A program made the position numbers and the translations under genes. A DNA stretch of 63,748 nucleotides, the filler included, from Kipferlia bialata (Eukaryota): NCBI GenBank assembly GCA_003568945.1. It is 4 parts of 4 records of this genome, joined end to end, with 100 filler letters (N's around TTAATTAATTAA, not from the genome) between each part and the next. Parts side by side here need not be neighbours in the genome. Positions count along the whole stretch, not along the records: positions 20,162 to 40,204 come from BDIP01000399.1; 3 more parts are not named here. The stretch is one strand, 5' to 3'. Under the pieces are notes generated by a model. The model had not been told where the DNA came from. It saw only the letters and a program-made list of their open reading frames with translations, and did not search any database. Position 1 is the first letter of the stretch, and each line of letters opens with the position of its first letter. Positions 22,337 to 57,337 of this stretch are shown here, piece after piece.

Positions 22337-23040
22337 TCAGACAGTCTCCTCAGGTACTCTCTGTGCAGGGGTGACAGCAAGGGGGTTGGAGACCTAGAAT
22401 CAGACATATATATATAGATATATACTAATATATATGTATATATTAATATCTGTGTACAGAGAGAGAGAAGATGGATTGAGTGACGGCAAGGGGGTTGGAG
22501 ACCTTAAATGAGAAGGATGAAGAGAGGGAGAGAGAGATAGAAATAGAAGAGAGCTGGGGCAAGTGACCTCTAATCAGAGAGAAGACAAGAGAGGAATGAG
22601 TTTGACTATAAAGATATCATCACAGAGAGAATGAGCACAAATAATTGATCTCCACAAGTTAGTAGTCAGATTATCCAATGTTACAATGTAAATGCATAGG
22701 ATTATATATACTTTCCATATCCCACCTTCTTGACCGGTCTCATCTTGCGTGTCTTCTTCTCGAGAGTGGCCTTGAGCTTGGTCTGAAGGAGTGAGAACAG
22801 TGTAGCAATATACCATGACTTGATTATAACCTTGTAAGACTACTAAGAGCTTACTACATTCATATTACATTGTGGAATTGAGCTTGGTCAAGAAGATACT
22901 TGAGTACATACCATGGCAATAATAGTAATTAGTAGTAAATGTACCTTTCTCTGCTGGAAGAAGTCCTCGATGTAGCCCATGATGAGAGAGAATGTGCCAC
23001 TGAGACCCATGACAGAACCTGGGGTAAAAGGGTGTGGGGG

Positions 23041-23074
<34 letters not shown>

Positions 23075-26000
23075 ATGTGCCACTGAGACCCATGACAGAA
23101 CCTGTGGTTAAAGGGTGTAGAGGGAGAGAGAGAGAGAGAGAGAGATAGATAGAGAGGCAGCACACTCCTACACTTGTAACTATAGGTTCAGTAGTATATA
23201 CACAACTTACCTAGCGCCACACCAACGAATGAGCCAATGGTGGTCTTCTTGGACAGAGTGGTGACAAGGGTGCTGTCTCTAGAGGGTCAGATACACAAGT
23301 AAAGAGATAAGAAGAAACTCAAACTACGGTGCTATCTGTAAGGGTGAGCATATATATGCATTATGAGTCTCTCCTGACCATAGACACCAGCTCAGTGCCG
23401 ACACCATCGACACATAATATAGTATATATCCACAATACAATATACAATATGGAATGTATACACTATCCTACTATACGACTATACCAATAGTTATCTCCTA
23501 ACCTGACCATAAACACCAGCTCTGTGCCGACTCCGTTCACGTAGGGGAACTTGGCAGGACCAGCCACATCGCCTTGGAGTCAGTATACGGATACGCCTCA
23601 TTGTGAAGAATTAGTTTTCTGCCACACAATGCACATAACTGTCGCCTGGGAGTCTTAACATATTCATATACATATATATATATATACATACCTGTCTCCT
23701 TTGAGTCCAGTTCAATGTGGTAGCCAGTGGTGAGCTGTCCACCTGGGGTAAGATACGTAAATAGAGAGACTTGCATAGAATAATACACATATATATGATG
23801 CAGATATACTAAGAAACTGTATTGATACAAAAGATGCCAGTGGTGAGCTGTCCAACTGGGGGGAGGGATAAGAACATATATTAATGTGAATAGAAGTTGG
23901 GGGGGAGAGAAATAGAGGGATGTAGCGGTGAGCTGTCCACCTGGGGTGATGTATGTATATGGAGAAAGACACTGAGTGAAAGTAGAATATGAGAGAAACA
24001 TAGTAAATATAGAGTAAATAATAAACATCTTATACCTCCTGTGGCGTCCTGGTAGAGTGACGGTGTGGCACCAATGGTGACAACAGAGGGGGCCATGCCC
24101 TACAATAAGAGACCGTAGAGGGAGGACGGGAGAGACAATAGCAATATACAACAGCGAGAGAATATATACACTGCACCTTGTAGACTGTCTCCACACTTGG
24201 TACTAGCTCAAGAGAATCCAATATAAGTCCATGCCAGTCAAACAGAATGTCATAGTCATACCTTGAAGACTGTCTCGACACTGGGCACTAGCTCAAGAGA
24301 GACAGTACTAGGTAGCTGGTCCGTGGTGATGTCTGACATAAGGGTGTAGAATGAGAGAGAGAAGGAGAAGGGGGGGAGATCACTTCACATAAGGCTGTAG
24401 AGAGAGAGAGAGGCAGAGGTACATTCAGGAGAGAGAGAGAGAGAGAGATTATCTGTTGTCTCTGTCAGGTATACTTGTATTAAGGGTGTAGAGAGAGAGA
24501 GAAAAGGGTGTAGAGGTAGAGAGATTACCTGTTGTCTCGTCGGGTATACTTGTATTAAGGGTGTAGAGAGAGAGAGATAAGGGTGTAGAGGTAGAGAGAT
24601 TACCTGTTGTCTCGTCAGGTTTACTTGTATTAAGGGTGTAGAGAGAGAGAGAAAACGGTGTAGAGGTAGAGAGATTACCTGTTGTCTCGTCAGGTACACT
24701 GGATCCGAAGCTGATATCCGCAGTGATGCCCTGGGAGTGTGCGGCAGTGCCTGACAATAAGGGTGTAGAGGGAGAGAGAGAACTCTGGCGGCAGTGCCTG
24801 ATATAAGGGTGTAGGGGAAAGAGAGAGAAATATCGTAATATGAAAGGATTAGAGCTATGGAAGTCCACTTGCAACAAATGGAAGCAGTCAAAGAGAGAGG
24901 ACTACATGTACAATACTTGAGAAGAATGTGGACTCGTATAATGGGTCCGATTGTATTTATGTATATTCCCAATTAATATATAAACACATGTAATATATAC
25001 CTGAGAAGAATGTGTAGACGTATGGATCCGTCTCACTGTCAGTCTCAAACACGCAGTCAGACATGGTGTACCTGGAATGAGAGTGTAGAGGAAGAGAGAG
25101 AGAGGGAGAGAGAGGGAGATGTCTCAAACACACAGTCAGATATGGTGTGCCTGGAATAAGGGTGTAAAGAGGGAGAGTAAGGGTGTAGAGACAGAGTAAC
25201 AACGGTGAGGAACTTTGGTGAGAGTTCTATCTATATATAAGAAATCTGTATTGTATCTATCTATCTATCTATACCCATACGTACTGTACATGGCAGGAGT
25301 ACCCAGCCGCTATGTAGTCTGTACCAGTAAGATCAGTCCTGATCCATGCGCACTGGAGTTAGGTTGCAGACGGAGGGAGGAATGAGTGATAAATATGTGG
25401 AGCGGGAGAGAGAAGAATCTTTGTTAGAGATAGGAATGTAATGACGTTCAGTTCCTCGTGGGCGTAGCGTGGATCGACAACACTATATATATACTACAGA
25501 GATATATAAATGAATAGAGAGAGAGATAACCAACCTGGTGGGCGTAGCATGCATCCGGTGTGATACCATCCTCATCTGCGACAGCTGGGGGTCAAGCAAT
25601 AATTAGTGATACTCCGGTTACAGTATAGAGTAATGACTATCATACATTTAGGCCATCCCCGGTGCTCGTCATAGTATCAGAGCCGGTGCCAAATTGAAGT
25701 GCAATACAATATATAAAATAATATACATAAGTATAAGAAATAATTACCATACAATCCATCCACACTGCTTGTCATGTATCAGAGCATGTGCCGAAATATA
25801 TAATACAGAGACAATACACTATAAGAATATATATACAGTATTCCTTACCATATAGTCCATCCACAGTGCTTGTCATTGTGTCAGAGCATGTGCCGAACTG
25901 ATCCACGTCATCCCTATCGGATACACAGTCAGACTCAGACCCGAAGAAGGAGAACTCAACGTTGATGGTGGCTGATATAAGGGTCTAGAGAGGGGGAGAG

Positions 26001-26395
26001 AGAGAGAGTCAGACTCAGACCCGAAGAAGGAGAACTCAACGTTGACAGTGGCTGACATAAGGGTCTAGGGAGAGAGAGAGAGAGAGAAACTCAACGTTGA
26101 CAGTGGCTGACATAAGGGTCTAGGGAGAGAGAGAGAGAGAGAGAGAGTCAGTCAGACTCAGATCAGAAGACGGAGAACTCAACGTTGATGGTTGCTGACA
26201 TATGGCGGTAGAGAGGGAGAGAGAGAGAGACACACACACAGTAAGACTCAGACCCGAAGAAGGAGAACTCAACGTTGATGGTTGCTGACATAAGGGGGTA
26301 GAGAGGAGGGGAGAGAGAGAGAGAGACACACACACAGTCAGACTCAGACCCGAAGAAGGAGAATTCAACATTGATGGTGGCTGATATAAGGGTCT

Positions 26396-26430
<35 letters not shown>

Positions 26431-29400
26431 CAGTCAGACTCAGACCCGAAGAAGGAATATTTAGAATTGACTCAAGGGTGTATTTGGAGAGAGAGGGAGC
26501 GAGCAAGAGAGAGAGATAGAGCCAGTCTTACCATTGAAGAGGATCTCTGTGGTGCTAGCGTCCCCGAGAGACAGAGTGGAGACCAGGAAGTTGGGGATGG
26601 TGGACTTGGTCTCCTAGGTGTTAAGGGTGTAGGGAGAGAGAGAGAGAGAGAGAGAGAGTGGAGACTAGGAAGTTGGGGATGGTGGACTTGGTCTCCTAGA
26701 GATTAAGGGTGGAGAGAGAGAGAGAGAGAGAGAGACAGGGTGGAGACCAGGAAGGGGTTTGTAGACTGTGTCTCTCTGGACTATAAGAGTGCAGAGAGCG
26801 ATAGAGAGAACCAGACGAAGATTGTGACAGTTAGCTGAGTATATACAATCCACACTATCAAGATAGTGTGTATACAGTGACATACAGTGAATACCTGAAC
26901 GTTATCCATCCAGAATGTCAGCACCAGGGATGTGCCCATGGCAAGGTATATACTATATGATATAAATAAATACATATATATATATATATACTATATACAT
27001 TTTGGTATATATAGTAGTGTAAGTACCTGTACGTTGTCCATCCAGAATGCCAGTACCAATGATGTGCCCATGGCAAGGGCAAACAGGTAGTAGATCAGGG
27101 TGAAGTAGCCACCAATCTTGGTTCTGATGTTAGAGAGTGCAAGATTGACAATAATGCAGTATATCATACCAGTATATCATACCAAGAGATGGTGTATAAT
27201 AAGTAGTCACTGCAGTAACTATGCCCAGTACAGAGAGGTAGTACAATATACATATATACGTACTGTCTGTTGATGGGTTCTGCCTTGTCTGTGGGTGGGT
27301 CAAGGGCGTATGTACTAATATATATAAGTATATACTTATATATATATATATTTATATATGTATATATTTATACATATACTCACTGTCTGTTGATTGGGGG
27401 TGCGTTGTCTGCGATGGGGTGGTCAAGGGTGAACCTATCCCATCTGGCCACATTGATCTGGGGTTGGTCTCCAATGAAATATATACAACTATATATTAGT
27501 ATATACATATATGTGTAGCACATTATGATATATCATGGGTGAACCTGTCACATCTGGCCACATTGATCTGATGGTATTAATTATCACATATTGATTCACT
27601 TAACACACAAAATTGCATTGATCCAGGTATAATTACATTGTAAACTAATGATACATATACCATATATAAATACTATATCCGTTATGTGTATACCTTGTGC
27701 CTTATGGGGTATGTGATGAGTAGCATCACAGCCAGGAGTACACACTCTGTGTACTAATGTACCATACTATATATACACTAGTATATATATACACTAGTAT
27801 ATATCATTGAATATGAATACCTTGTGTCTAATTGGGTATGTGATGAATAGCATCACAGCCAGGAGTACACACTCAAAGTACTAATGTACCACATAAGATA
27901 AACATCACTATATACATCTATCCAATAACGTATAAGTACCTTGTGTCTGATGGGGTATGTGATGAGTAGCATCACAGCCAGGAGTACACACTCAAAGTAC
28001 TAATGTACCATACTATATATACACTAGTAAAATATTTAGTAATGTGTATATACCTTGTGCCTAATGGGGTATGTGATGAGTAGCATCACAGCCAGGAGTA
28101 CACAGAGGAACCCAGCCAGGACATAACATACACGGGTCCATGTCTCAACCTGGCCTGGGGGTTAGGGAGATATATACTTATGTATCTCCACATATACACA
28201 AATACATATTCACATATGTATATTGTAGAATAACGATGAACATAAACGGGCCCAGGTCTCAACCTGGCCTAAGGGTGAGGTGGTTAGGGATATGCATGAA
28301 TACATGTATACTGGAATATGTATACAATGTGAACACATGATAATGTATACACTTTCCTGTCATCAATGACCTTGCGTCTGGCTGCACCTCTCTCTCCCTC
28401 CCCCTCTGTATATATATACGATCTACTACAAAGAATATACCTATCTATATTAGTATAACTATATATACATATTATATACCTGTCATCAATGACCTTGCAT
28501 CCGGCTGCACCTCAGTGTCACTCTCCAGGGTGGGCTTGGTGCCTAAAGGGGTGAGATAATGTTCTTATACCCATACTTAATCTATATAGGGAGAAAGTGT
28601 CACTCCCAATGGCTTGGTGCCCTAAGAGAGGACAGGATCACACTAGCTCACATATATGGATACCAATTGATAGAATGTCACATTATGTATATATTGTGTG
28701 TTGTGACAGTTGCTCACCTGCTGTGATGCTACCGATGGGACAGTACTCATCTTCGTCACAGTCCATGCACCTGACAATAAGGGTGTAGAGAGAGAGAGAG
28801 AGAGAGAGAGACTCAAGAATATATAGTCCAAATTGAGGCTATCCACTGTCCTTGTTGTGTCATATTGCACTTTGAGTGGTCGGTGAAGGGCCATTTATAG
28901 AATGAAGACAATAGATACAACATTATGGGAATGGTAACACCTTCGTTGACTGATGCATAGATGCATATCGTATATACATGATACATTTGCGTAAGTTACA
29001 TACTTTGAGTGGTCGATGGAGGACAGGTCCGCTGGGACTTACTTACAATTCACTAATCCTAATACGGAGAAAGTAGTTTGTCGCAATACATAGTAGTGTA
29101 TAGAATATATATCACTATGCACATATCAATATATCTTACTTTGAGTGGTCGATGGAGGAGAGATCTCCTGGGGTATCGAAGTATGCACGCTGGCCTAGTA
29201 TTAGTTATATATACATGGAGAGAGAGATATACAAATAAGTTGAAGAATTCCCGCTGGCCTAGTATTGCATATACTAGCAGGTTACTAGACAGAATTTACT
29301 ATATGCTATCTGTAGCATTCAAATACTTCCCATACAGGTACAAATATATATGTCTAACCATGCCTTCTGGGCATGGTGTACACCCTAGCAGGTTCCTGGC

Positions 29401-31481
29401 AGTGTATATGTTGTATATATAGTACAAATAGTACATATATAGTANNNNNNNNNNNNNNNNNNNNNNNNNNNNNNNNNNNNNNNNNNNNNNNATATAGTAT
29501 ATCATATATACACATATCTACAAGTACCTTCTGGGCAGGGTGTGCAGACAAGCAGGTTCCTGGCAGCAAGGGTCTCACTGGGGTGAGAGAGAGAAACAAA
29601 CATGGACTCTGTAGACTACATATATACATAGCTATATATATATATATATACCGATATACACATAGCTATATATAGACGTATCATATACCTGTAGTACCCG
29701 TCTGGACATGTGACACCTACTATAACACACAGTATCCATATGTACATATATATACTATAGGGGTATATACACATACCTGTAGTACCCGTCTGGGCATGTG
29801 ACACAAGATGACTCATCAAGGGACTTGTAGGTGCCTGTCATTAGATCACATAGTTATACAAATATATATATTATATAGTATATGTATTACAAATGTATTG
29901 TCATGGCTCGCCAAGGGACCTGAGCGTACCTGATATATAAGAGATATCAAGAGGTGCATATAGTAGGAGAGAGAGAGAGAGGGGAAGATGACATCAAGGG
30001 ACTTGTAGGTGCCTGATACTAAACCAATCACACCAATAACATGCATATGTACCGAGAGATAGAGGTGGAGAGTAAGATGGAGACAGAGAGAGAGAGAGAG
30101 ACACTTACCCATGGGACATGCTGCGCAGGTACGTATACATATGCGTATATATATATATATATGGAGAGAGAGAGAGAGAGAGAGAGACGTACCCATGGGA
30201 CATGCTGTGCAACTCTCGTACTCAGAGGAGTAGTAGGTGCCTGTGGGTAAGAGATATGAAAGGGGAGGATTTGAAGATATTGACTATGTAATGCACTACA
30301 TGCAACTGTTACGATATACGAGTACATACAAATGTATACGTATGTACATGTATTCATATACCTGGGCTGCATGAGTCATAGAGGATGGTGCCATTGGCTA
30401 TATAGGTATATATATATATATGCATATGTAAAAATATATATATACATATATACCTGGGCTGCATGAGTCGTACAGGATGGTGCCCTGTGATATAAATGAA
30501 TGAATCCATTCTGATATGCATATACATGTATACATGTATATATATGTATAAATAGATAGATATGTATATATATACCTGGGCTATATATACATATATACCT
30601 GGGCTGCATGAGTCGTACAGGATGGTACCCTATGCTATATATGAATACGTCCATTTTCCTATATTCCTATTATTACGTATATACGTATGTATGTATGTAT
30701 ATATATATGCATACCTGGGCTGCATGAGTCGTACAGGATGGTCCCCTCATAGGACTTGTGCACAGGGGTCAGGGTGGCCTGGGTTAACGCGAGATAGTAG
30801 AGAGACTTGTTTACAAGTAAATGTATATACATATAGAGAGAGAGAGGATTTTGGTCAGGGTGGGTTACGCGATACAGAGATATATAACTACACATAAATT
30901 TACTTTGTCCATATATTATTCATACACATGCATATTCATACACATACATATTCATACGCATGCATATTCATACACATGCATTTCAATGTGTGTATATATA
31001 AATATATACTACAACTATTTTCAAAATAACAAATTGACTACCTTGTAGAGATCGCTGGACCCACTGTCATCGATGATGAATGATACAGTACATATATATA
31101 TATATATATACTACTTTCTACCATATGTATACATATTACAATTTCTATTAGACGTAGGTTACCTTGTAGAGATCACTGGACCCACTGTCATCAATGATGC
31201 GTTCCAGGGCCTGAAGGACACCGCCATAGCTGGGATGTGAGAACATAAATATATGTATAACACACACACATATATATATATAAAGAGAGAGGGAGAGAGC
31301 GCGCAGGAGGCGCTCCAGGGCCTGAAGGAAACCTCCATAGCTAGTGGGTGAGAAATAGTTAGTAATGACAAGAAGACATACTGCAAGTTCTTGGACATCC
31401 TTAACCCGTTGTATTGATATTAACATGCTATGGTATATGTATATATGTATACACAACATACATAGAAACTAACTGCTGCAT

Positions 31482-31520
<39 letters not shown>

Positions 31521-32286
31521 CGTACATGTACATGGTTGACCCATGGTACTGGTATGCTGTGCCCGATGTGGCTGGCAGCATGTCATAGTCTGTGACAACC
31601 TCGGTGTTGATCTGGATGTCAGACATACTCTATTCTAATATATGCATATATATACATATAAGGAGAGACAGAGAGCGAGAGCGATGTGGCTGGAAGCATG
31701 TCATAGTCTGTGACAACCTCAGTGTTGATCTGAGGAGTAAGATAAATATATAGATAGAGAGAGAGCGAGAGAAAGAGAGAGTCTGTGACAACCTCGATGA
31801 TCTGAAGGGTAGACCAATATATCAATTGACTCATAACTATATAGCAACGTCAATGTTTGAATATATACACCCATACCTGTGTATCCACTGAGTGGTCTGT
31901 CACGCCAACTATCGTATCCTATATACATATATATCTGTATATCAATATCAATATCAATATCAATGTCAATATATATACATACACCCATACCTGTGTATCC
32001 ACTGAGTGGTCAGCCACGCCGAGAGTCGTGATGTACCTGGGGGTGAGTAAACATTGTACTATGCACTATATACATACACGGAGGGTGCCGTATGTACCAA
32101 CTCAGGAGTACAAATACATAAAAATATACATAAACAAATATGTACACATCCATATATACATATATATATATACATATACATACATATACACATAAACACA
32201 TATATACCTGTAGGCAAAGGCGGATGTCCACAGTCTACCACCTAGTGTCCACACACTCCACACAGAGTCATCCACAGAAGGGTCTA

Positions 32287-32325
<39 letters not shown>

Positions 32326-32488
32326 TGTCCACACACACCACACAGAGTCATCCACATAAATTTCTAGGGTGAGATACCTAAACATAGATAAGTATATACA
32401 ATTGTGCAATCATATACACAAAGAGTACCTTCACTCTCATCCACCACCCTCTGCACCACAAATGCTTACTATAGAACACTCCTACATA

Positions 32489-32525
<37 letters not shown>

Positions 32526-33227
32526 GTTAATGATAGTGAACCAATTCACCATACCCTCACTCTCATCGACCACTCTTTGTACCACAAAGGCCGCATTGTC
32601 TACAGAGGAGTGGACACCCGTGTAGTCGTTGTCTAAGGGTGAGACATAGTATAGTACACATAGTTCACTTGATATTGACAGTATACATATACATATATAT
32701 ACATATGCATATGTCCACAGAGGAGTGGATACCCGTGTGGTCGTTGTGTAAGGGTGAGACGAAGCAAGTATATCATTCACTCGAATTCTTCGGGGGGTGA
32801 AATCAGACAAGAGATCAGAACCATATGTATGTATTGATGTGTATATTACCGAACACAATACATATACATTACCTGGGTACTGGTAGCGCCTGTATGCCAC
32901 CTGGTCTTGCAATACATATATAAAGTACTAAATATACACATATAAAGTATAGACATTACTAAACAATATATATATTGTATATAGAAAATATAAATAGTAC
33001 ATATAGTGGGGTGATGTCGTGTTGTAAATCTATACATTATACAAACTGTACCAAAATGTATATAGCGAAGTATTAATATTGAACTATATATACAATACCT
33101 GGGTACTGGTAGCGCCTGTATGCCACCTGGTCAGTGCCAAGGGTGGGTACAGCGCCCTCGTCTCTGTCTGGGGTAAGTGTATATGTATTCACATATATAT
33201 ATATGTATATATATATAGAGAGAGAGG

Positions 33228-33258
<31 letters not shown>

Positions 33259-34233
33259 TATGTGTGTGTCAAGAGTCGGGACATCGCCCGCATATTTAGG
33301 GTCAGAATATTTATTCAATTATATTGATGCATATACTTACATGGTGTGGGAAAGAGGGAGTGGTGAGGAAAAATACAGAGAAATGAGGGCATTGCCTGCG
33401 TCCTGTCCCCCTGCCCCGTTCTCCTATACTATATACTATTCATACTATGTATATACTTCATATAATGTGTACACATGTATTATTACACTACAGTATAGAT
33501 ATTTCTATAGATGCATACCTGCGTCCTGTCCCCCTGCCCCGTTCTCTGCCTCTAATATACACACCACATATATAACATGCTATACAACTAACATATATCT
33601 GTATATATCTATCTGTATATATAGTCTTCTACTCATACCTGCGTCCTGTCCCCCTGCCCCGTTCTCTGCCTCGCCCCATCCCTTGACAGACACCTCGTAC
33701 CTAGTGGGTTAGTATATATACAAACACACATATATATATATATTTACTGATACATATATATATCTGTGGTGTCGTGTGCCACCCCTTGACTGACACCTCG
33801 TACCTAGGGTAAAGGTATGGTACACACATGAGTATACCTATATACTAACTGATATATTCGTATATATACAGTGTCGTTTACCATACCTTGAGAGACACCT
33901 GGTACTTGGGTTAAGTGTACATATATATGTAGAATCACAAAGAATATCTAAATATTATTCACTGCGAATGCGATACACATTACGTACCAGTCGTAGTTCT
34001 GTCCGTTGCTGGAGAGCTCTCCGCCATACAGGAACATCCGGCCACCCACATTGTCAACGTGACAGGCCATAAGGGCTTAAAGTTAGACATATATAGTATT
34101 GCAAATGACACACAAAGACACATAGACAGGGATGTAAACTCAATGTCCATATGAGGGTATCAGATATGTCAACTGATACTGTATCAAAGAGAGAGACAAG
34201 AACACCCTGCCACCCACCTGTAGAGTCACACAA

Positions 34234-34265
<32 letters not shown>

Positions 34266-34762
34266 ATAGATAAACATAATATATATAGATAGATGTATAC
34301 CTGGAGGAGTGTTGTCGGCCTGATACTCCTCGTACTCCTCAACTCTCTCTCTCTCTATCTATCTACATACATATATAAATACTATATATATATATATATG
34401 TACACCTGGGGGAGTGTTGTCTGTTTGGTACTCCTCGTACTCCTCAACTCTCTCTCTCTCTCTCTCTGTATGTATTCATACATATATATCCATACCTGGT
34501 GGTGTGTTGTCTGCCTGGTAATCCTCGTACTCCTCATCGGTGAAGGGAAGACCGGTGGAGGAGTCGGTGGGCCTAACAGTTAGTAGTATACAAATGGCAT
34601 GTAGACAATAAGTATGTCTGGATACACAATAATGTGTACTCAATGGAAAACATGTGGATGAGTCGGTGGGCCTGGTAGTGAGGTACATGAGTATTCACTT
34701 TTAGATATGTACATGCTCCAGTTGTGTCCAGGTACTTACCTACTCTCTCTCTCTCTCTCTGA

Positions 34763-34793
<31 letters not shown>

Positions 34794-35454
34794 TATATAT
34801 CTATATATATATGTATATATATATGTCATACTATACCTCTCTAGGGCCACATGCTCCAGCTGTGTCCAGGTACTCATCTACTCTCTCTCCCCCCCTCCCT
34901 CTCTCCCTCTCTGAGTATTTTATATATATATATACTATAATACCTTTCCAGAGCCACATGCTCCAGCTGTGTCCAGGTGTGTGTCAGCAGATCAAACCGC
35001 CACATCTCATCGGACATGGATGACACACGCTGGCCACCATAGACATAGCTGGTAATAAGGGTGTAGGTGGAGAGAGTAAAGGGTGTAGAGGAAGAGAAGA
35101 ATTGACATGGATGACACGCGCTGGCCACCGTAGACATACCTGGAAATGAGAGTGTAGCTAGTGGGAAATAGTGTAACTCTTCGTCCACAAACCAGTATAC
35201 CAGTATAGTTATTGTGTGGCATATAGTATTAACATATCGTACACGTAGTTGTCCTGGAACACGATAACATGCACAAAATATAAATATATATACTTATGAA
35301 TATATATCATTATCACTGTGCATGCACTATAAATATATAACACATCACATATTATACATCACGTACACGTAGTTGTCCTGGAGCACAGTGCATGCACCAC
35401 TGGTGGGGGGGTACTCGTCACCTGGGGGTAAGACATATATTACATTCATCTCTG

Positions 35455-35489
<35 letters not shown>

Positions 35490-38096
35490 CTATGGTACTC
35501 ATCACCTCATAGGTCAGATAGAGAGCAAGAGAGAGAAGGAGGGAGAGAGTGACTGATGGGAGACAATAATATATATACATATACATACCTGTTGAATCAT
35601 CATCTGTAGGGTAGACCTGCTCCCATGTCTGGGTATCCAGCCAGAATCAATAATTAATCTACTAAAATGTATAGTATATAATATTTCGTATATATATATA
35701 TATACATATACATACCTGTTGAATCGTCATCCGTGGGATAGACCTGCTCCCATGTCTGGGTATCGAGCCAGAAGACCCACACGTCGTTGAGGTAGGTGTC
35801 TGCAATAAGGGGCTAGAGAGAGAGAGAGAGAAGTGAATGCGCTGAGGTAGGTGTCTGATATAAGGGGCTAGAGAGAGAGAGAGAGAAGTGAATGCGTTGA
35901 GGTAGGTGTCTGATATAAGGGGCTAGAGAGAGAGAGAGAGAGAGTGAATGCGTTGAGGTAGGTGTCTGGTACTAGGGGTCCATAGAATACCTTTCTAGTA
36001 TATAGTAAGCAGTCCACATTTTTCTCTCAATATATAATATATATCCTCAATAATGATACCACACGTCGTTGAGGCAGGTTTCTGAGATAAGGGGCTAGAG
36101 AGGATGTATATACTAGAAAGGGTCTGGAAGATCTCGGAGCTGGATGGAGAGAGAGAGAACATAATACGCACACACGTCGTTGATGTAGGCGTCTGGTATA
36201 TATATCTGGAATATGGGGATAGGCAGCATATATATATGTGCAAATGTAAACACAAATACAATGTATACCTGTTGTTGTGTCACTTCCAAGCATAACCAGC
36301 AGGTTGCCTCCCCAGGCATGCATGTTGAGTCTCTCTCTGACGTGATAAAGGGTGTAGAGAGAGAGAGAGAGAGAGGTTGGGTCTCTCTCTGACGTGAATG
36401 AGGGTGTAGAGTGGGAGAGAGAGATGTTGAGTCTCTCTCTGACGTAAATAAGGGTGTAGAGGGGGAGAGAGAGAGATGTTCATTCAACTGAGTAACGACA
36501 TATTTTTGTATTTGTGGTCGAGAGAGAGAGAGTTTCTTGGAAGCCACAGTGATCATTATGAATGTATATATCTCATGACTACGTGTGAGAGAGAGGGTCC
36601 CTTGGGTCAGGGATCAGGTAGATAGTACATGTATATGTAGAGAGAGAGAGAGAGAGAGAGAGTACCTTGGGTCGGGGATCAGGTAGGACGATGTCTCAAC
36701 GACCTGGGTGATGAGTGACATATACTCTAGCCATAGAGAGTATCTCCCTGTCCCAGAAACATTACCGTCATCCATCACTCTCTCCTAAATAACTATAATA
36801 TAACATACCTCCCAGTTATCACTTGACGTTTCCTCTCCCTCATCCCCAGTGCCAGACACATCGCTAGAGAGGTCAAGGCTCCAGATCACAGAGGCCAAGG
36901 AAGCAGACTCAACCCTAGTGTGAAGATAGAGAAAGAGAGAGAGAGAGAGAGGGAGAGAGAGAGGGAGAGAGAGAGAGAGAGAGAAGTCAAGGCTCCAGAT
37001 GACAGAGGCGAGCGAGGCACACTCAACCCTGCTATTTAGGGTATGGAGAGACCGTGACACAGAGATATTAGCACTGAATTGATGTTATACAATAGTAGGA
37101 TACACATGCATACTATTTCTTACCTAGATCCACCGAAGATGTACATCTTGTCCCCCACCACAGCTGATGCCAGGAGAGAGGACTCGGGGGGGGAGAGCTG
37201 GTTGCTGACATGAGATGAATATGTATACACATATATTAGTGTGTGTGTGTGTATAGAGAGAGAGAGGGGGGGATGGGAGGAGAGAGACAGAGAGAGGACT
37301 CAGGGGGTGAAAGCTGGTTGCTGGGGTAAGATAGTAGTACATAAACATAGAGAGAGAGAGAGAGAGAGAGAGAGGACTAAGTGGGGGGCTGCGTATACAC
37401 GTACAGCAGGATGATGTCGTAGTCCGATGCAGTCACTGTCTGTCACAGAATAACTGTATATGTATACATCTAACTGAATATAGTAATAGCATATATATAG
37501 TATACACTACATACGTACTGTAGAATGATGTCATAGTCCGATGCCGTGACCGTCTGTTCATCCACAGTGACAGAGACAGTCTCACTCTTGGACATGCAGT
37601 TGGAGGCACCCTGGGAATTAAGGGTGTAGGGGGAGAGAATAAGGGTGTAGTAAGAGAGAGAATATGGGTGTAGAAGGGGGAGAGAGATATGATGATGTCA
37701 GAATAATCAAGGAAGACTGTTAATTTAAATATGTTGTGTAGAGAAAGAGAGAAAGAGAGAGAGAGAGAGAGTATGTCATGTACCTCGCTCTCCATGTATC
37801 CTCCGAAGAAGTACTGGGTGGCTGAGTCCTCTGACTCCAGGGGGGGAACCTACAGGTTAGATGTACATATATAGAAGATACACTATATATATTGATGTCA
37901 ATGCATTTCATCTGTGATGCTGAGTCCTCTGACTCGAGGGGGGGGACCTGATGGTAAGGGTATGCTAAAAAAACACCATATATGATAATACTGTATATAC
38001 TACAACACGTGAATACCTGACACATTGCCCCTCCGTCCGCTGCCACGTCTAGCTGACATACTATATACATATGCCTAATACATATAACTATATATG

Positions 38097-38130
<34 letters not shown>

Positions 38131-38964
38131 TAGTACCTGGCACATTGCCCCTCCGTCCACTGCCACATCTAAGGGTGATGGGATGTCATGGTCACCCACA
38201 GCCATGTCGCCCCAGGTCTGAAGTTAGAAATGCACAATAATAGATACAATTACAATATAGATATAGTGAACAAGAGCCATGTCGCCCCAGGTCTGAGAGG
38301 GTCAGATAAGCATAGAGGTATTCATAATGGTTCAATCAACACAAATGAATACAAATGCATGAGATAGATGACCAACCAGGTCTGGGAAAGATATACACAA
38401 CATGGATACTTCTATCTAGAGAAACTGTCCATGCATACATACCCAGTTTGTTGGGTCCTGGTAGTCGCCGTTGAAGTTGAGGATGATTGCATCGTCACGG
38501 TCCTTCTGAAGAGTTAGAATATGTAGTAAGACATAAATATATATGAATTACTATCAATATAAGTATAGACACTATCTTCATGAATATAGATATAGCTGAG
38601 GATTATGGCATCACCTCTGTCCTTCTGGAGGTTAGAATATGTGGGAATCCCTAAAGTATCACTAGTGTACACAATATACTTGACTAGAAGAATACCACTA
38701 TTACCTGTGCCAGTCTGTCCCATCCGTATAGTACCACGAATCCATCCCTGGAGAGGTACTTGAGCTGCACATCGTTGCCTGCTGTTACAAAGGATATTAT
38801 TGTAGTCCAATTGTGAATTGTAACAATTCAAACAGTATTACGGTAAAAGTACGGAAAAAGATATCAATAATTAACCCATCGATAGATAGCTACTTGAGCT
38901 GCACATCGTTGCCTGCTGTTACAAAGGATTAATAATACAATGCAAATACATGACAATGCCATTA

Positions 38965-39002
<38 letters not shown>

Positions 39003-40032
39003 CCATCTCTAGATAGCTACTTGAGCTGCACATCGTTACCTGCTGTTACATAGGATATTACTATGGTCCAATTGCACATTATAACATTTCAAACAGTATT
39101 ACGGTATAATTAAACCATCCCGCGACAGGTACTTGAGCTGCACATCGTTGCCTAAGGGGTGAGATATCGTATGTAACACAAATATGACCTATACAGAGTG
39201 CCCGTAGAGTAGGTAGCTCGAATACTATGTATGGTAGCATATATATACAGTAGATATGTTATTATACTGGTACCTGTCGAGTCCAGCTCCAGATCGGCAA
39301 TAACAAAGATAGTATATAGTATATATAATACATATAACAAAGATAGTATATAGTGCAGTAGAAGTTGTATTACACAACATACATACACTCTAAAATATAC
39401 TAAAATATACTATATATGTACTTGCACTGTTACCTGTGGAGTCCAGCTCCAGATCGGCATCGACGTAGAAGGTGCAGATGTATCTGGGGGTGAGCGAACA
39501 TATAGGGAAGAGATATATATAAGAGATAGACTAAGGAGAGAGAGTGTGTGTAGAAGGTGCAGATGTATCTGGGGGTGAGACTATCAGTATCAGGAGAGAC
39601 ACCCACACCCACACACACACATATATATATATATGTATAAATATTTACTAATAACAATGAATACTGGTGACAGATGTATCTGGGGGTGAGCAAAACATAC
39701 AAGGGAGAGATATACATATGATATAGAGTAAGGGGACATATCTTGGACCAGGACTCTCACACTCACCCGCATCCTCTGGCATATGTCAAGATATAAGGTA
39801 TATATATACATATGAAACTGTGGTAGATACCCACCTAGGTCCAGGATTCTCACACTCCACTGCATCCTCTGAGTCAACCTCTCTCTCCCTCCCTCTCTGA
39901 ATACATAAATTTATATATATCTATATATATATATATATGTATATGTATATATATAGTCATATGTTAATATACTATACATATACCTAGGTCCTGGCTTCTC
40001 ACATTCCACTGCATACTCTGGGACCAAGTGAG

Positions 40033-40075
<43 letters not shown>

Positions 40076-46123: not shown

Positions 46124-46961
46124 ATGTTGCTTACACACAGGGAGCACGCTCTGAAGAGGCCTGATACCTACATTGACAGTGTGGAGATCAGGACACAGGT
46201 ACATATATTGTTAATATTGTCTCTGTTTCCCTACATAATCCTTTGGGATACTCTACATATAGTATCTACTCTACATTGACAGTGTGGAGATCAGGACACA
46301 GGTATGCATATATTGTTATAATATTGATCTCTGTTTCCTTACTATATTCTCTGTCTAGATCTAATCCTCAATAATGTGCTTCCCTTTGTATACACATGTG
46401 GACACTCGCCTGTTGGATACTCAATATAGAGTATCTACTCACCTCAGCTTGCCTGGGTGTGGGAGAATGACACCCTGGTCCACAGGGAGACATCATTTGT
46501 GCCAGGTACCCTCTCTCTCTCTCTCTCTCTCTCTCACGCTCTCTTCAGATTTCACACACTCTCTCTCTCTTTAGACCTCTGTCCACACATCTAGTATGCC
46601 TCTGAAACAAGCATCATTATATATACACCCCGTCTGACCCAAGCCTTGTCAAGCTGTTCGATGAGGTCATTGTCAAGAAGAATTATGTTTTCTTTCTGTC
46701 TATCGATCTATATCTCTCTGTATATGAGTACAACTGTATCTGACCCAGGCCTTGTCAAGCTGTTCGATGAGGTCATTGTCAATAAGCACCATTATGTCTT
46801 TCTATCTATATAACTATCCACCTATATCTATCTATGTCTTCAATGTATATTATCTGACCCAGGCCTTGTCAAGCTGTTCGATGAGGTCATTGTCAATGCC
46901 AGTGACCACAGACAGAACCACATCAAGGTATACATATATATATATATATCCAGAGCTCATG

Positions 46962-47029
<68 letters not shown>

Positions 47030-47668
47030 TAGCTAATCATCAGGAGGTGAAGCACATCCAGGTCCACCTCTCTCTCTAATTATACATCTTTCTCTCTCTC
47101 TCTCTATGTATATATATGAGTATACCTGTCTCTAACTATCAGGAGGTGAAGCACATCCAGGTCCACCTCGACCAGGCAACTGGCAGGTATGCAGATATAT
47201 ATATGTATAATCCTGAGTACATATGAATGTATATCTATATGATATATATATATATATATATCATATAGAAATCTCGACCAGGCAACTGGCAGGTGTGATG
47301 ATGATAATTGTACCAGCCACACACTTAGAGTCCATTTGAGTATGTGATATATATATACATACATATATCTCTATGAGCATTACCCACCCACAGGATATCC
47401 GTCAAGAACGATGGACCTGGTATCAGGATCGAGATGCACAAGGTATTCTCATTCTATTGAATAATAGTATTCTAATCTCTCTCTCTAACTTCTCTCTCTT
47501 TCCCCCTTATATCTCAGGTCTCAGGCCTGGTGCTCAGCCAGCTCATCCTCCATTCTCTCTCTCTCTCTATATATATATGTATGTATTAATATACCCATTT
47601 GTATATGTATGTACCTAATACCCCAGGCCTCAGGCCTGATGCTCCCCCAGCTCATCTTCCTCGTTCTC

Positions 47669-47706
<38 letters not shown>

Positions 47707-49423
47707 ATCAGGCATCAGGCTTGATGCTCCCCCAGCTCATCTTTGGAGAGCTGAGGACATCCTCCAACTACGACGACACAGACGAGAGAGTCACAGGTAT
47801 TGGTGTATCTATACACTACTATAATGGGGAATGGTATATATGTATATATATATATACTACGACACGGACGATGGATCACAGGTACTGATAACTATCATTA
47901 TTATATAGTTGGGAATGACATATGTGTATGTATATATTCATGACGACACAGACGAGAGAGTCACAGATACATGATAGTGGAGAATGACATATCTATATAT
48001 AACCATATGTTTATATATATATATGGCGACACAGACGAGAGAGTCACAGATACTGATGTATGTATAGTGGGAAATTGCATATCCATTGTATTCTGAGCAT
48101 GTATGTTGTGTATATATTCCCGTGGATGTTGTTGAGTGTGTATGTATTATGTATTCATCATGGTGGTCTAACCCCCAGGTGGCCGTAATGGATACGGAGC
48201 CAAGCTGGCCAACATCTTCTCTCGGTATGTACATATATATAAATATATATATATAAGCATATATAGTAGTGCAGTAGTATAGTATACAAAAAAAAAAATA
48301 TATATACATAATGTGTTACGGAGCCAAGCTGGCCAACATCTTCTCCCGGTATGTATACAAGTGTTATGTTCTTTTCTACGATTCTATGCGATCTCGTATT
48401 GAATATCTAGTGTGTTTCTTTCTCTTTCCATTACCCCTTGTTGTTTGCCTCTGTTATCTCTCCCCCTCCACTGGCCTCTTAAGTACTCTGTTCATACAAG
48501 TGTGATATACACATATATATATATATATCAATATAATTATTATCTTCATACTAACACCAGTGAGTTCACTGTGGATGAAAGGTCCAAGAGACCGACCTAT
48601 CATATATATCTATATATATGTATATTGCATGTATCTCTCTCTCTCTCTCTCTCTGTCTGTCTCTACCCCCCTAACACCAGTGAGTTCACTGTGGAGACTG
48701 TGGATGGCAACAAGTCCAAGAGATACACCCAAGTGTGGACCAACAACATGAAGGACTGTGCTCCTGCCACAATCGAGAAGGTATCCCATGCATTATATAT
48801 ATATATATATATATACACGACTCACCCCAGGTCAGCAAGTCCACCAAGCCCTACACCAAGATCAGCTTCATCCCCGACTACCGCTACTTCAAGCTGTCAG
48901 GTACTACACACACACATATATATATATACATGAGTATGTACATATATTGACATGTATCTCTCCATATAAACCAGTTCATACTGCTGTGAGGGATATTATT
49001 GCCATTTTCCTGCTCTCTTCATCTCCACCCTCATATTCTCTCTTTCTCTCTCTTTCTCTAGACCCTTATGTCAGGCCTTGACAATGACCACATGGTCATG
49101 ATGACCTCTCTATCTCTCTCTCTCTCTCCCTCTAGACCCTTATTTCAGGCCTTGACAATGACCACATGGCCATGATGGCCAAGAGGACACTCGACATTGC
49201 TGGATGCAACGACAAGCTCAAGGTATACTACACGTGTGATGATGGATATTGTACACATATATATTAATATATGGTAATATATATATGATGCAACGACAAG
49301 CTCAAGGTATTGTATATGATTATACATATTAATGTATTTACATATGTATATGTAATGCCTCTAATGCCCTGGTATCCCTCAACGGTGTGCCCTTTGGTGC
49401 CGATGGATATTATCCCTCTCTCC

Positions 49424-49454
<31 letters not shown>

Positions 49455-50617
49455 CTTATACACATATATAATGCCTCTAATCACTAGGTCTCTCTCAACG
49501 GAGGTGCCTTGGGAGTCGATGAATATTATACAAAAATACATAAACATTGATACATGTATATGAATATATACATATATATATATATATATATACATATATA
49601 CGTTGTGAGTCTTATGCCTAGGTCTCCCTGAACGGTGTCCCCTTTGGTGTCGATGGCTTTGAGGACTACGTCAAGATGTTCTTCAGATCGGCATTCCCAG
49701 GTACATTGTTATATATGTAAGTATGAACATACATTATACATACATATTATTCTCGGCATTCCCAGGTACACTACTATCTGAACCGACTCTAATTGAATAT
49801 ATATATATCTGTTCTCTCAATCATATGAGTGTATGATATCCCCCCGCCCCCCCCCCCCACTAATAGTACCCATCAGACATATATATACATATATGTAAAT
49901 ATTAGTGTCTATCCATTCCTTAACCCCAGACCTCTGCCACGTGGATAGATACCTCTCTCTCTATATATATATATCTATCTATATATATATATATATATGC
50001 ATTGCCTCACCCCCAGACCTGTGCCACGTGGATGAGGACCCAGAGGAGGACAGTGATGTCATCGACGAGGTGAGGGGGCATAACAGTATATACACTGATG
50101 AAGCATATATAGTAGTATGTTGTATAATAGTATGCCCTCGAACCCCAGGACAGTGATGTCATCGATGAGGTGAGGGGTCATGACAGTATATATCATATTG
50201 TCATATACATCATACATGCCCTATGTATATATCAGTGTCACTCTCCATGTGGATTGATGTCATCGATGAGGTAATGGGTCATAACAGTATATACACTATA
50301 ATACCTGTGTATGTACTATCCCTGTTGTGAGTGTCAGAGACAGAGAGAAGGAGAGAGATAGGGAGAGAGAGATGATACTATCATCGGTGACTTTATCAAT
50401 ATGTACTGATGTCAGTATACGTAAGGGGTATAGGCTAGTATGCCATCTAACACTAGGACAGCATCAAGAAGAAGAAGCGTCAGTATCAATGTATATATAT
50501 GAATGGATATGTGTTTGCATATATATTATCTAACACTAGGACAGCACCAAGAAGAAGAAGAAGAAGCCTGCCAAGAAGGCCCCTGAGGACAAGTACATTG
50601 CATACGCTAAGGTACAT

Positions 50618-50650
<33 letters not shown>

Positions 50651-53600
50651 AATATATATGTCAACTGAATGCTAATCTCTGACACCTCATGTCCTATTGT
50701 ATCTCTTCTGAGTTGCGTCTACCTCCCCTCCCCCACTCATATATTCCAATTGATCTCATCTAACTCCCCCTCTCACCCTACCTCCCCTCCCCCACTCATG
50801 CATTCCAATGAATCTCATCTAACCCCCCCTCTCACCCTAGGTCTCTGACCGCTTCGAGGTTGCTGTCACCCAGACCCCCTCCGGTGCATTTGAGCAGATA
50901 TCATTCGTCAACAGCATCAACACATACGCAGGGTGGGTGTTGTTGTATCTCTCTCTATATATATATACACGCATATATGTATATAGTCCAATTGTCCCCA
51001 TGTGGACTGTGTGGCACATCTCCAACTCTCTCTCTCTCTATCTCTCTTTCTCTCTCTATATATACATTATTATGAATACATCTCACCCCAGTGGCTCCCA
51101 TGTGGACTGTGTGGCGGACCAGCTCATGAAGCCTATCCAGGACGAGGTATGGAGTATATATATGTATATATATATATGTGTATATGAATATATATGTGTG
51201 TACAATGTATTAGTATGACATCCCCCTCATTCCCGACGAGGTATATATATACCCTATTGTCAGTTCATGTGAATGTAGTTAAATACTTTTACATATGATT
51301 AGTAATTATAGTATTATGATAGTATTATAGTACTTAGTGTGACATCCCCCTCATTCCCAGGTCATGAAGAAGTCCAAGCTGGGCAAGGACGAGAAGCCAC
51401 CCTCCAAGGGACAGGTTGGTACTACCTGCATATGTGTATATGCCTGTATTAGTGCATGTATATGCATCTGCACTTTGCTGGTCTCGGTTTGTCACATGTT
51501 GCATCTATACTGGCACTCTCCTACTGTGAAGTCTTATTCTCTAGTGACTCACTTCCAGGTCAAGAGCAGGATCTGGCTCTTTGTGAGGTCCCTGGTCATC
51601 AACCCATCCTTCAACAGCCAGGTGCCCGCTTCTCTCTCTCCCTCTCTCTCTTAGTTTGATATATGCATTCTCTCTCTAGATTCGATACGGTGTCTGTCAC
51701 CTCCTGGCAAGCAACCCCTCCTTAAGCACCCCTCCCCTTTGCTCTATCGCAGTTTCCATCTCCTCAATACATGGTCCTACAGTATCTCTCTCTAGCCCCT
51801 TATTTTAGGCCAAGTCTGTACTTGGCACCACCACCTCCTCCTCTCTCTCTCTCTCTTTCTCTCTCCCTCTAGCCCCTTATTCCAGGCCAAGTCTGTGCTT
51901 GGCACCACCTCCTCCTCCTTTGCCATGGACTGCCAGATAGCACCTGCATTCCTCAAGGTGTGTCCATAAGTATATATGTCAATACACACATGTATATTGT
52001 TACGACAAGAATATGTGCTGAGTGAACACCCTCTCACTATGTTACTATTCCTTCCTCACCCTCTAGAAGATTGTCAAGCTCCCCCTCCTCGCTGACATTG
52101 TGGATCTGGCCATCGTCAACAGGTACTAATTAACATATATATACATATATGTATACATATATAGATATATACGCATATATATATATAGGATATTTACAGT
52201 TATATGCTGACATTGTGGATCTGGCCATCGTCAACAGGTATTTGAGTATAACCATAATAGTATTGTGTATATACATGTTTCTATACCCATTATCATACAC
52301 ATGCATATATATATATATGCTGACATTGTGGATCTGGCCATCGTCAACAGGTATGTGTGATGATAACACTATCATGTATCATATATCGTATATCATAAAT
52401 ACGAATATATATATTATGGATATGTACTTTTATATGCTGACATTGTGGATCTGGCCATCGTCAACAGGTATGTATATTTGAATGGACGCATATTATTTAA
52501 TGCATCACATATATATGATGCGAATTATTAGTATGTTTGATCGTGAATGGCTTTTCTATCTTGCGAATGTGTGTATATTTTACCACTCATCCCAGGTCCA
52601 AGGAGCTATCTGTGTATAATGCTCAATATTAATATGCCTATAATAATCTAGGTATTGAATGTATTATTATATATATCATTAATACTCACCCCAGGTCCAA
52701 GGAGCTGAAGACTCACTGAAGAAGAGTGACTCTCATTCATATGTATACTTTATGTATATTACACATATCTATATTTACTATATATATATATTTACTATAT
52801 ATTTATATATCAACTGTACTCACCCCAGGTCCAAGGAGCTGAGCAAGAGTGATGGCACTTTTCTAACTATTCTGTGTATAATGCTCAATATTATTATATC
52901 TATGATAATATATATATCATTTCTTACTTACCCCAGGTCCAAGGAGCTCAAGAAGAGTGACGGCACCAAGAAGGCCAGGGTGAGGGGCATTCCCAAGCTG
53001 GATGACGCAAACCACGCAGGACAGGTGGGTATCTACAATATATATATGAAGAGTGTATATATATATCATATATCAAAATTAATGTGCATTATACATATGT
53101 GCCAAGCTGGATGACGCCAACCACGCAGGACAGGTGGGTATGCATTTGTATTAACATATATACCCCCTCTCAACCGCTGTATCTCCTTTATGAATATATA
53201 TACACCCCATATGCACCTAACATCCAGGGCAATATCATTATACTATATATATATATATATATATATATTATTCTATACAATATAATATTGTATTGCATTA
53301 ACCCCCAGGGCAAGAAGGCCCAGCAGTGCACCCTTATAGTATATATCACTATAGTCATAATGTCTCTCTCTCTATATATATGTATGTATATACCCCCTAA
53401 TCCCCAGGGCAAGAAGGCCCAGCAGTGCACCCTCATTCTGACAGAGGGAGACTCTGCCAAGACACTCGCTGTGGCAGGTATATATATATACATACATATA
53501 TACATATATATTTACCCATACTCCCAACCATTTATGCATTTAGAGACTCTGTCAAGATACTCGCTGTGGCAGGTATGGTGTTGAGTATATACATCCTATT

Positions 53601-54936
53601 TCCCACCCAAACACCATACGCTCCTCTGTCCTTCCACTACTCTGACCCCCTAGGTCTTGAGAATGTGGGCATAGACCCAACCCACTCATACACATATATA
53701 TATGTACCTAAATATACTATATACATACAGTGCGTATTCCTTTCTGACCCCCTAGGCCTTGAGATTGTGGGCAGAGACAAGTACGGAGTGTTCCCACTCA
53801 GAGGTATGTGTATGGATATGTATAGGTATACAGAAAACACACACATATATATATCAAGTGCACAGTTTGACAAATATCTACTCTGAATATTTGGTTCATT
53901 TGTATTACTATGACAGTGTCTCACCTTCAGGCAAGATGCTGAATGTCAAGGGTTTTTCTGTATTACTTCAAGTGTATTTATATATTGTTTGTGAGTACCA
54001 ATCTATCTCACCCTCAGGCAAGATGCTGAATGTGAGGGGCGCCAAGGCCAAGCAGATTGCAGAGAACACTGAGATCTCGTACATCAAGCAGATCATGGGT
54101 GAGGACTGCAACCCACATGCTATTTATACCAGTTACTAGAGACCAGATGGTTAAGCATATCCTCCTCACACCTAGATCTCAAACAGGGCGTGGACTACTC
54201 TGATACAATGATTGATTGATCATACGTCTATATATATACGTGTGTAGATGTGTATGTGTATTCTCATCTATCAGGTCTCAAGCAGGGCGTGGACTACTCT
54301 GATGATGCCAACTTCGCCCGTCTCAGATACGGGCACATCATGATCATGGTATGTTGATATGTATTCAGATTTCCTTGATAAGTAAATACTCCTCCGGTAC
54401 TGTGTGCAGAACTCAATACCCATCTTGACTTTGCATACTGTATCATGTTCGTATCCCGCAATCCTGGTCGACCAGGATCCTATTGTATAGTAGAAGTGTA
54501 TATATAGCATCACAAAACCTTATGCCAGGTTGATCAGGATCACGATGGATCCACACATAAAGTATAATGTATATACAATGTATATATAGTATTCTATCCC
54601 CTCATTTCAGGTTGAGCAGGATCCAAACATAATAATGTATAATGTATATATAGTATTTCTTTAGTACATATATTGTACCAACCTCTCATGCTTGATATAT
54701 ATATATATTGTCTATATAGCATCATATCCCCTCATTTCAGGTTGATCAGGATCACGATGGATCCCACATCAAGGGCCTCGTCATCAACTTCATCCACAGG
54801 TGGGTAGGCCTGAATTCTTATGTTATAGGATACTTATGCACATGTGTATGTGTGCTTCCGCGTTGTAGTGTATCCATGCTTATTGTATACATATTGACGT
54901 TTCAGGTTCTGGCCCATCCTCCTCAAGAGGCTTGCC

Positions 54937-54989
<53 letters not shown>

Positions 54990-55605
54990 ATATATGTGTA
55001 TATGTATGAGTATATGGGTAGCACACATATACTCACCTTCAGGTTCTAGCCCACCCTGCTCAAGAGGCATGCCCCATTATATATACACCTATATATATAT
55101 GTATATATATATGTATGAATCTGATACCTATATCAGTCCTATATATGTATCTCACCATTAGGTTCTGGCCCACCCTGCTCAAGAGGCGTGGCTTCCTGGT
55201 TGAGTTCATCACTCCCATTGTGGTGGCCAAGAGGGGGACAGGCAGGAACCAGAGGTCGGATGTACGGGGACTTAATATATACAGTGTCTCTCTGTATTTT
55301 CTATTCTCACGGTCAGACCTTCGATACCAACCCCTTTTATACATGTTTACTCTATATATATAATAATGTATTGTATTCTTACTGTCAGACCTTCTATACC
55401 ATCCCCTAGTATATGTGTTATGTCTCTCTCTATATGTTGTATATATACTCTAATCACCACCAGACCTTCTACACCATCCCCGAGTACGAGGCCTGGCGTG
55501 ATGCCCTGAGCCAGACGGACAAGAGGGGGCTGGCCGTCAGATACTACAAGGTATGGGCATGTATATACTATATTATATATATATGCATATACTTTAATGA
55601 TTATG

Positions 55606-55636
<31 letters not shown>

Positions 55637-56555
55637 GGCGTGATGCCCTGAGCCAGACGGACAAGAGGGGTCTGGCAGTCAGATACTACAAGGTATGGGC
55701 ATGTATATACTATATATACTATATATAGATATATGTTAGTATGGGTATATATGAGTATGACAAAGGGGTCTGGCAGTCAGATACTACAAGGTGTGTATAA
55801 TGATATTCCGCACTGCAGTATGTCGCTGCGACACACAGTCTTATCCCAGGGACTTGGTACCTCCACACCAGCTGAGGGCAGGGCATACTTCAGGTACCGT
55901 TGAATGTATATGAGTATAAGGCTGTATACTATCTAGTTCATGGATACAGAATGAGTTCAGGACAACATTCGTCGTAGCAAATCTCCAGTTCCTGTTAGTC
56001 TGTAGTATCTATATTCTCTACAATGTTATCATTCCTATGAAGATCTGCCATCTCATCTCCAGGGCACTCACATCCAACAAGAAGCTGTTCAAGTTCGACC
56101 ACCAGACAGGTGAGGACATAGATAACGTTGACTTCCATCATCTAATTTACATTATAAAACAATTTACTGATCTGTCTGTGTATATATGAGTGTGGCACGA
56201 TGCTGTTCAAGGGTCGGCCACCAGATACTCGAGTTTCTATACACAAGATTGTCAATGTAGTGCACTCTTCCATTCACCTGATCTCCAGACCGCTCCATGG
56301 ATAGCTATAATACATTATCACACGTATACTCACCTAACTCCCAGACCGCTCCATCGAGCTGGCCTTTGCCAAGGGAGTGGGGGCAGCCGCCGCCAGAAAG
56401 GTATGTATACTATGTATATAATGTGTACATATATATATGTTGAATTAGTATTAAATATATATTTATGACATATGACTATCTTTGTATATACTAAGGGAGT
56501 GGGGCCAGCAGCTGCCAGAAAGGTATCATCATCAATTTGATTGTGTATTCTAATA

Positions 56556-56586
<31 letters not shown>

Positions 56587-57211: not shown

Positions 57212-57252
<41 letters not shown>

Positions 57253-57306: not shown

Positions 57307-57337
<31 letters not shown>

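Follow-up and report, generated by a model that had tools for sequence, protein, structure and literature searches.

Partial exon copies in the introns of Kipferlia bialata carry an excess of silent differences

Introduction

Duplications of exon-intron boundaries are already known. In such tandem repeats, an exon end and the start of its intron are repeated head to tail, extra splice sites are left in the intron and the first donor is presumably used. Gao and Lynch reportedly dealt with internal gene duplication in 2009. In silent-cassette conversion systems (trypanosome VSG, Borrelia vls, Neisseria pilS and chicken Ig pseudo-V) partial, non-expressed variant copies adjoin the expressed sequence. 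One-sided invasion finished by end joining, or aborted SDSA, gives a net templated duplication that is homologous at one end and has a sharp, non-homologous junction at the other. It is known from induced breaks and gene targeting; no standing, genome-wide case at splice sites was found in the literature searched. The SDSA and MMBIR repair pathways have been described (PMC4888836). Duplicated mutually exclusive exons are a further system, in which exon/intron units are multiplied through unequal exchange. The 90-bp-exon arrays of Tetrahymena LRR genes were built by unequal crossing over (PMC6564038).

The genome of Kipferlia bialata has 124,912 annotated introns (PMC5874029) and the spliceosome is reduced, with 87 of 174 proteins (PMC6679479). 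The published draft is a SPAdes assembly, with one depth peak once bacterial scaffolds were removed (PMC5874029). The main text of the draft-genome paper makes no mention of duplication, heterozygosity, ploidy or polymorphism. Here we describe partial copies of exon ends, which we call echoes, in the introns of this organism. The full-text literature searched gave no description of echoes in Kipferlia and no account of such copies with a silent excess at the level of alleles.

Results

The window is a stretch of 63,748 nucleotides, in which four contig pieces, from contigs of about 20 kb, are separated by N linkers with a short stop-rich core (20062-20161, 40205-40304 and 60346-60445). Contigs across a linker are not necessarily genomic neighbours. 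Two gaps of 47 N (5058-5104 and 29445-29491) resemble scaffold gaps. Echoes were counted in 107 introns of four curated genes on three contigs. The gene models were curated by coordinates; all are open and all introns are GT-AG. A first automatic gene model was rejected because it absorbed echoes as exons. Genes at about 1-6900, 12040-13991 and 14296-16212, and the fragment after 60446, are outside all echo counts.

The gene that hosts the array described below (22337..39483, minus strand) is 5'-partial, with 46 exons modelled and 69 echoes in 45 introns. Domain annotation gave a Kelch propeller, an ephrin-receptor-like Cys repeat and predicted membrane segments. Our model agrees with P0002, a deposited protein, at all but one of 1082 residues (1081). 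P0002 takes in an acceptor echo (39116-39151, minus strand) as an extra 12-residue exon, duplicating GNDVQLKYLSRD. In protein searches, two exon queries each led to a single protein at 100% identity, labelled Kipferlia bialata.

The same pattern was found on separate contigs. A plus-strand gene (46141..60178) with 41 exons modelled has 54 echoes in 40 introns. From its motifs, we take this gene to encode topoisomerase II. It has at least 41 exons in 14 kb, is cut off by the contig end and has a clean reading frame only when echoes are excluded. On a third contig, the pattern was repeated over the 9 introns, echo-bearing or plain, of a gene with a GRSIG motif (8071-10724, minus strand), which is presumably alpha/beta-hydrolase-like. 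In a coiled-coil-like gene (40384-45945, minus strand) GA microsatellites encode Glu-Arg runs.

The echo search was ungapped and anchored at splice sites. Exon ends were compared with the following intron, for donor echoes, and exon starts with the preceding intron, for acceptor echoes. We found 144 echoes, 68 on the donor side and 76 on the acceptor side, in 80 of the 107 introns. Known boundary repeats do not resemble this density, of 1.35 echoes per intron and 75% of introns examined, nor the use of both sides. Control pairings of exons with foreign introns gave 0 echoes in 535, and wrong-side echoes numbered 0 in 107 introns. Comparable repeats were limited to 3 weak pairs in 5,975 nt of intergenic DNA and 1 in 3,121 nt of long exons. 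In each of the 23 introns carrying both kinds, every donor echo came before every acceptor echo.

Echoes are 13-58 nt long, in units of about 100-110 nt, and spacers fell below 40 nt in just 4 of 144 cases. None of the 144 is a whole exon, or exceeds 80% of its exon. Even beside exons of at least 90 nt, echoes were never longer than 58 nt. Short echoes and long spacers may come from the mechanism itself, from competition in splicing or from long copies being deleted faster. A constant unit length was considered and rejected; echo length and spacer were anti-correlated in acceptors only. The length of these introns is explained by the echoes, each of which adds about 93 nt (r=0.87). Two echoes ended within 2 nt of each other in 16 of 28 multi-echo arrays. 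The repeated unit, an exon end with its adjoining intron arranged head to tail, is that of an exon-intron boundary tandem duplication.

Three other arrays can be set beside the one described below. At 26007..26380 (minus strand) a single exon has five acceptor echoes, of which one contains a stop codon; a topoisomerase II exon also has five, at 59636..60010 (plus strand). At 52206..52467 (plus strand), three donor echoes equal the exon over 32 nt, with spacers that are poorly alignable and of nearly equal length.

The array at 27692..28156 was examined on the minus strand. The true exon (28054..28154; 101 nt) encodes QVETW...YPIRHK, a predicted transmembrane segment, and is open in the curated model with AG before and GT after. 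The true donor GT opens a first spacer of 63 nt (27991..28053). There follow donor echo 1 (27940..27990), a second spacer of 68 nt (27872..27939), donor echo 2 (27821..27871), a third spacer of 76 nt (27745..27820) and donor echo 3 (27694..27744). Each echo is 51 nt long and is followed by GT. Further on are an acceptor echo of the next exon's start (27533..27567; 35 nt, AG intact, 3 differences) and that exon itself (27384..27457; INVARWDRF...). An AG 9 nt upstream of each of the three donor echoes would yield in-frame 60-nt exons.

The unit lengths are 114, 119 and 127 nt. Spacers differ strongly right after the donor and are a mosaic further on. The 5' part of spacer 2 is unlike spacer 1 and its 3' part is shared, and the 3' part of spacer 3 resembles spacer 1. 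All three echoes begin at the same exon position, with common spacer sequence upstream of it. Hence, the array is built of tandem units, each 114-127 nt long.

The codons are as originally predicted. Where the exon reads CCC ATT AGG, the echoes read CCC ATC AGA, CCA ATT AGA and CCC ATA AGG. Echo 1 has two silent differences (ATT>ATC and AGG>AGA), and echo 3 has one (ATT>ATA). Echo 2 has CCC>CCA, AGG>AGA and, further upstream, the predicted L>F change (CTC>TTC). The echoes therefore differ silently from each other, not from the exon alone, and all three Ile codons are present across exon and echoes, as the result of a single site changed twice. The array contains 5 distinct changes, of which 4 are silent (p=0.026 versus neutral decay; p=0.13 versus a dead-copy model). 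By itself the array is weak statistically, and the strength lies in the window-wide set.

For that set, the 3 exon bases nearest a donor and the 2 nearest an acceptor were excluded from silent counts. Neutral decay would give 23-28% silent differences, and a dead copy next to a protected exon 37-44%; of 248 exon-echo differences, 168 were silent. Four-fold sites differed at 113 of 637 positions and zero-fold sites at 71 of 2588, a ratio of 6.4-6.5 (bootstrap 4.7-9.0 over 103 arrays). The ratio was 5.1-11 across each of the four genes. With base context matched it was 5.8-7.2, and without CpG it was 5.9; mutation bias, CpG and AT drift were rejected as the source of the silent excess.

We passed simulations through the same echo detector as the real data. 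Dead copies of one lineage gave ratios of 2.2-2.4 at any age tried, with a maximum of 3.5, and none of 600 runs reached 4.7. Conversely, a template already 10-15% divergent at silent sites gave 6.2-7.9. These simulations also led us to reject detector bias as the origin of the excess. Since the observed 6.4-6.5 exceeds the simulated maximum of 3.5, the sources of the echoes must be alleles that diverged side by side. Known boundary repeats do not compare in this respect either; the silent excess is three times what a dead copy allows.

Echo-echo differences were collected from the 28 multi-echo arrays. Here 40 of 68 events were silent, versus 22-28% expected, with a four-fold/zero-fold ratio of 3.9 (bootstrap 2.2-7.5). 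This bias is clearly above neutral and marginally above one-lineage snapshots, as the lower bound of 2.2 touches the one-lineage value. Absence of such a bias had been set beforehand as grounds for abandoning the original prediction. The bias indicates that copies come from different functional versions of the exon, and supports the prediction's description of them as snapshots.

The same prediction held that an array may be an ordered record of past alleles. This part was not supported. The farthest echo was more diverged than the nearest in 11 arrays, less diverged in 5 and tied in 12 (p=0.21), and the rise with rank was not significant for silent differences (27 versus 22; p=0.57) or replacements (14 versus 8; p=0.29). 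Across the 28 multi-echo arrays the direction of the trend favours an ordered record without reaching significance. The array at 27692..28156 goes against that trend: echoes 1, 2 and 3 have 2, 3 and 1 differences, so the most distant of them resembles the exon best. Moreover, succession in one lineage cannot give the exon-echo excess.

Echoes look non-coding and under no selection. Stop codons are present in 4 echoes, and the GT or AG is broken in 18 of 144. Unit lengths are random modulo 3. Replacements in echoes are no milder than random (mean BLOSUM -0.29 versus -0.44, p=0.22) and the nonsense share fits the neutral expectation of 4.3%. Splice dinucleotides were altered in 6.6% of cases versus 2.7% for zero-fold sites (p=0.002). 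Judging from the topoisomerase II frame and the deposited gene model, echo splice sites would be skipped and the echoes left untranslated. A run guessed to be RNA (X2, word share 0.12) gave no evidence on splicing. The signs of unselected decay, together with the silent excess, divide the differences into two layers. One is unselected decay of about 2-3%. The other consists of silent differences gained while both sequences were working exons.

Discussion

Divergent alleles and recombination are needed both by templating of echoes from other alleles and by duplication in cis with later overwriting of the exon. We consider it probable that one of these two accounts is right. We lean towards the former. 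In that account, divergent homologous chromosomes recombine or serve to repair breaks, and a different functional allele acts as the template for each echo. Template alleles were then likely 10-15% divergent at silent sites, with a further 2-3% per site of neutral decay in the echoes so far. One genome would then likely hold a scattered sample of the population's alleles.

We infer the repair route from echo geometry. Allelic TA/CT-rich introns would be too unlike to pair, leaving exons of about 70 nt as the sole islands of homology. A broken end would invade the homolog at an exon, then copy through the intron and on into 13-58 nt of the following exon. The copied end would be joined, with no annealing, to the other broken end, as in one-sided invasion or aborted SDSA with alternative end joining. 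The product would consist of the exon, a stub of its own intron, and then part of an exon from the other allele, followed by that allele's intron. Which end invades would set whether a donor or an acceptor echo results. After a first junction has formed, an echo and the homolog's exon could undergo unequal crossover or conversion, which would add or refresh units. Such exchange would produce units with the same junction, as in the array at 27692..28156. Exon definition would let the spliceosome ignore the half-exons.

Several observations bear on templating from other alleles. Beside echoes the intron side is homologous, with donor +4..+10 identity of 0.51 versus 0.31 for unrelated introns, yet it is far more diverged than the exon part and so is hard to derive from a fresh sister copy. 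Within about 5 nt past the echo junction, identity has dropped to background. A sharp junction of this kind, non-homologous and with homology at the other end, is what characterises one-sided invasion. The intron side fits a homolog template, putatively with exons about 94% identical and introns barely alignable. A weak search for a paralogous donor gave one protein only among 3 candidates and none among 1,256 shorter candidates. Against the proposed route, microsatellites were not enriched at donor-echo junctions (7 of 68 versus 13.6% background). All Fornicata covered by the survey in PMC8516963 lack Rad51A and Ku/DNA-PKcs and have two Dmc1 paralogs; Dmc1 stabilises mismatched heteroduplex (PMC6719624). 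This gene content is context for the mechanism, not a test of it.

Two further results count against an allelic origin. Intron-side divergence is about three times the silent divergence, a gap that would require introns to mutate faster, silent sites to be constrained or conversion to have refreshed old echoes. Furthermore, similarity of the exon part and of the intron side was uncorrelated across echoes (rho -0.14 and 0.05), and a linked allele origin predicts some correlation.

The uncoupling of exon and intron-side similarity favours the account in cis, which we regard as unlikely but as the main alternative. It says that echoes are sister-chromatid duplications of the resident exon end, and that the working exon was later overwritten by short conversion tracts from divergent alleles. 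Echoes would then be true past residents of the chromosome, unordered, which comes closest to the original prediction. The same silent excess and unselected decay are expected, and 38 of 144 echoes are identical to their exon versus 26.5 expected. However, a copy made in cis would start with an identical intron side. The observed identity is about 50% even beside the donor, while zero-fold sites differ by 2.7%, and only a handful of the 38 echoes that equal their exon are also near-identical on the intron side. Nor is there a significant age gradient with rank.

Selection acting indirectly is quite unlikely. In this account, echoes serve as a silent-cassette means of repair or a reservoir of diversity, and they convert back into the exon so frequently that damage to them carries a cost and they stay coding-like. 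The silent bias among the echoes themselves is in its favour, as are changes common to several echoes, which divide into 12 silent and 2 replacement versus 40 and 27 for private changes (p=0.07). The most harmful changes should then be depleted and they are not, as the 4 echoes with stops and the altered splice dinucleotides make plain; replacements are not conservative.

An assembly artefact, with culture haplotypes or strains written head to tail at exon boundaries, would jointly explain the silent bias, the divergent intron sides and the concentration at exon ends, and the source sequence is a fragmented draft. We think it very doubtful all the same. Echo junctions sit within gap-free sequence and are shared in tandem. 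Working haplotypes should carry neither stops nor broken splice sites. If intron alleles had been concatenated, acceptor copies would come first and donor copies second, opposite to what all 23 introns with both show. Run X1 contains 0.93 of sampled 31-mers from 22000-31900, a region in which 9-11% of 31-mers straddle a junction; this is weak evidence, and the reads may be those of the assembly.

Ordinary dead tandem duplications of one lineage, with the silent bias due to the protected working exon alone, explain the geometry and decay and are compatible with the array at 27692..28156 taken singly. Window-wide they are contradicted by the simulated ratios given above, and we hold them to be highly improbable. 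That echoes are alternative coding exons or splice sites under direct protein-level selection is the least credible account, for although 126 of 144 keep GT or AG and the upstream AGs in the array would give in-frame exons, echoes are partial, random in frame and in some cases stopped, inclusion would put repeats into conserved topoisomerase II motifs, and the array's exon segment occurs once in P0002.

Echoes also differ from the systems they most resemble. Tetrahymena arrays and mutually exclusive exons are whole, translated and confined to special families, whereas echoes are half exons, presumably untranslated, in housekeeping genes such as that for topoisomerase II. Mutually exclusive exons are whole copies with both splice sites, stop-free and selected; echoes are neither. 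Unlike silent cassettes, which diversify proteins at a dedicated locus, echoes have no such locus, differ mostly silently rather than antigenically in all four genes counted, and show no sign, within the window, of transfer back into the exon. A bolder form of the allelic account is unlikely. It holds that under Dmc1-only recombination Kipferlia exons act as homology islands, and that pieces of other alleles are written into almost every intron and also read back by conversion, a two-way allele reservoir. If true, a record of outcrossing and population diversity would be legible from a single genome.

If echoes are allele-templated, a single assembly would hold tens of thousands of samples of other alleles, extrapolating from the frequency per intron, and silent-site diversity in Kipferlia would be about 10-15%. 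The echoes would be evidence that divergent lineages of a free-living fornicate exchange genetic material, in a group for which it is an open question whether sex occurs. They would also offer a natural view of how cells that lack Rad51A and Ku repair their DNA. The reduced spliceosome would be choosing among near-perfect decoy sites in most introns. Echoes mislead gene prediction and can inflate exon and intron counts, one having been taken as an exon in the deposited model.

Some minor observations were made. The intron motif was also looked for in metagenomes; one scan gave 0 loci and another 7, which lack the TA/CT intron style and were rejected as chance matches. Four divergent donor echoes at 39720-40150 (minus strand) belong to an exon beyond the contig end, and a gene fragment on the fourth contig has, by eye, one donor and one acceptor echo (60510-60895, plus strand); both are outside the counts. 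Window-wide, as at 24336-24700, introns have a branch-point-like CCCTTA, CTCAC or CTAAC that sits only 7-12 nt from the AG and is preceded by CT tracts. Where bare branch and acceptor motifs recur, they resemble acceptor echoes that are older and have decayed. At 26811-26834 (minus strand) an acceptor-like site is followed by some 24 nt that look coding and correspond to none of the modelled exons, possibly the echo of a lost or replaced exon.
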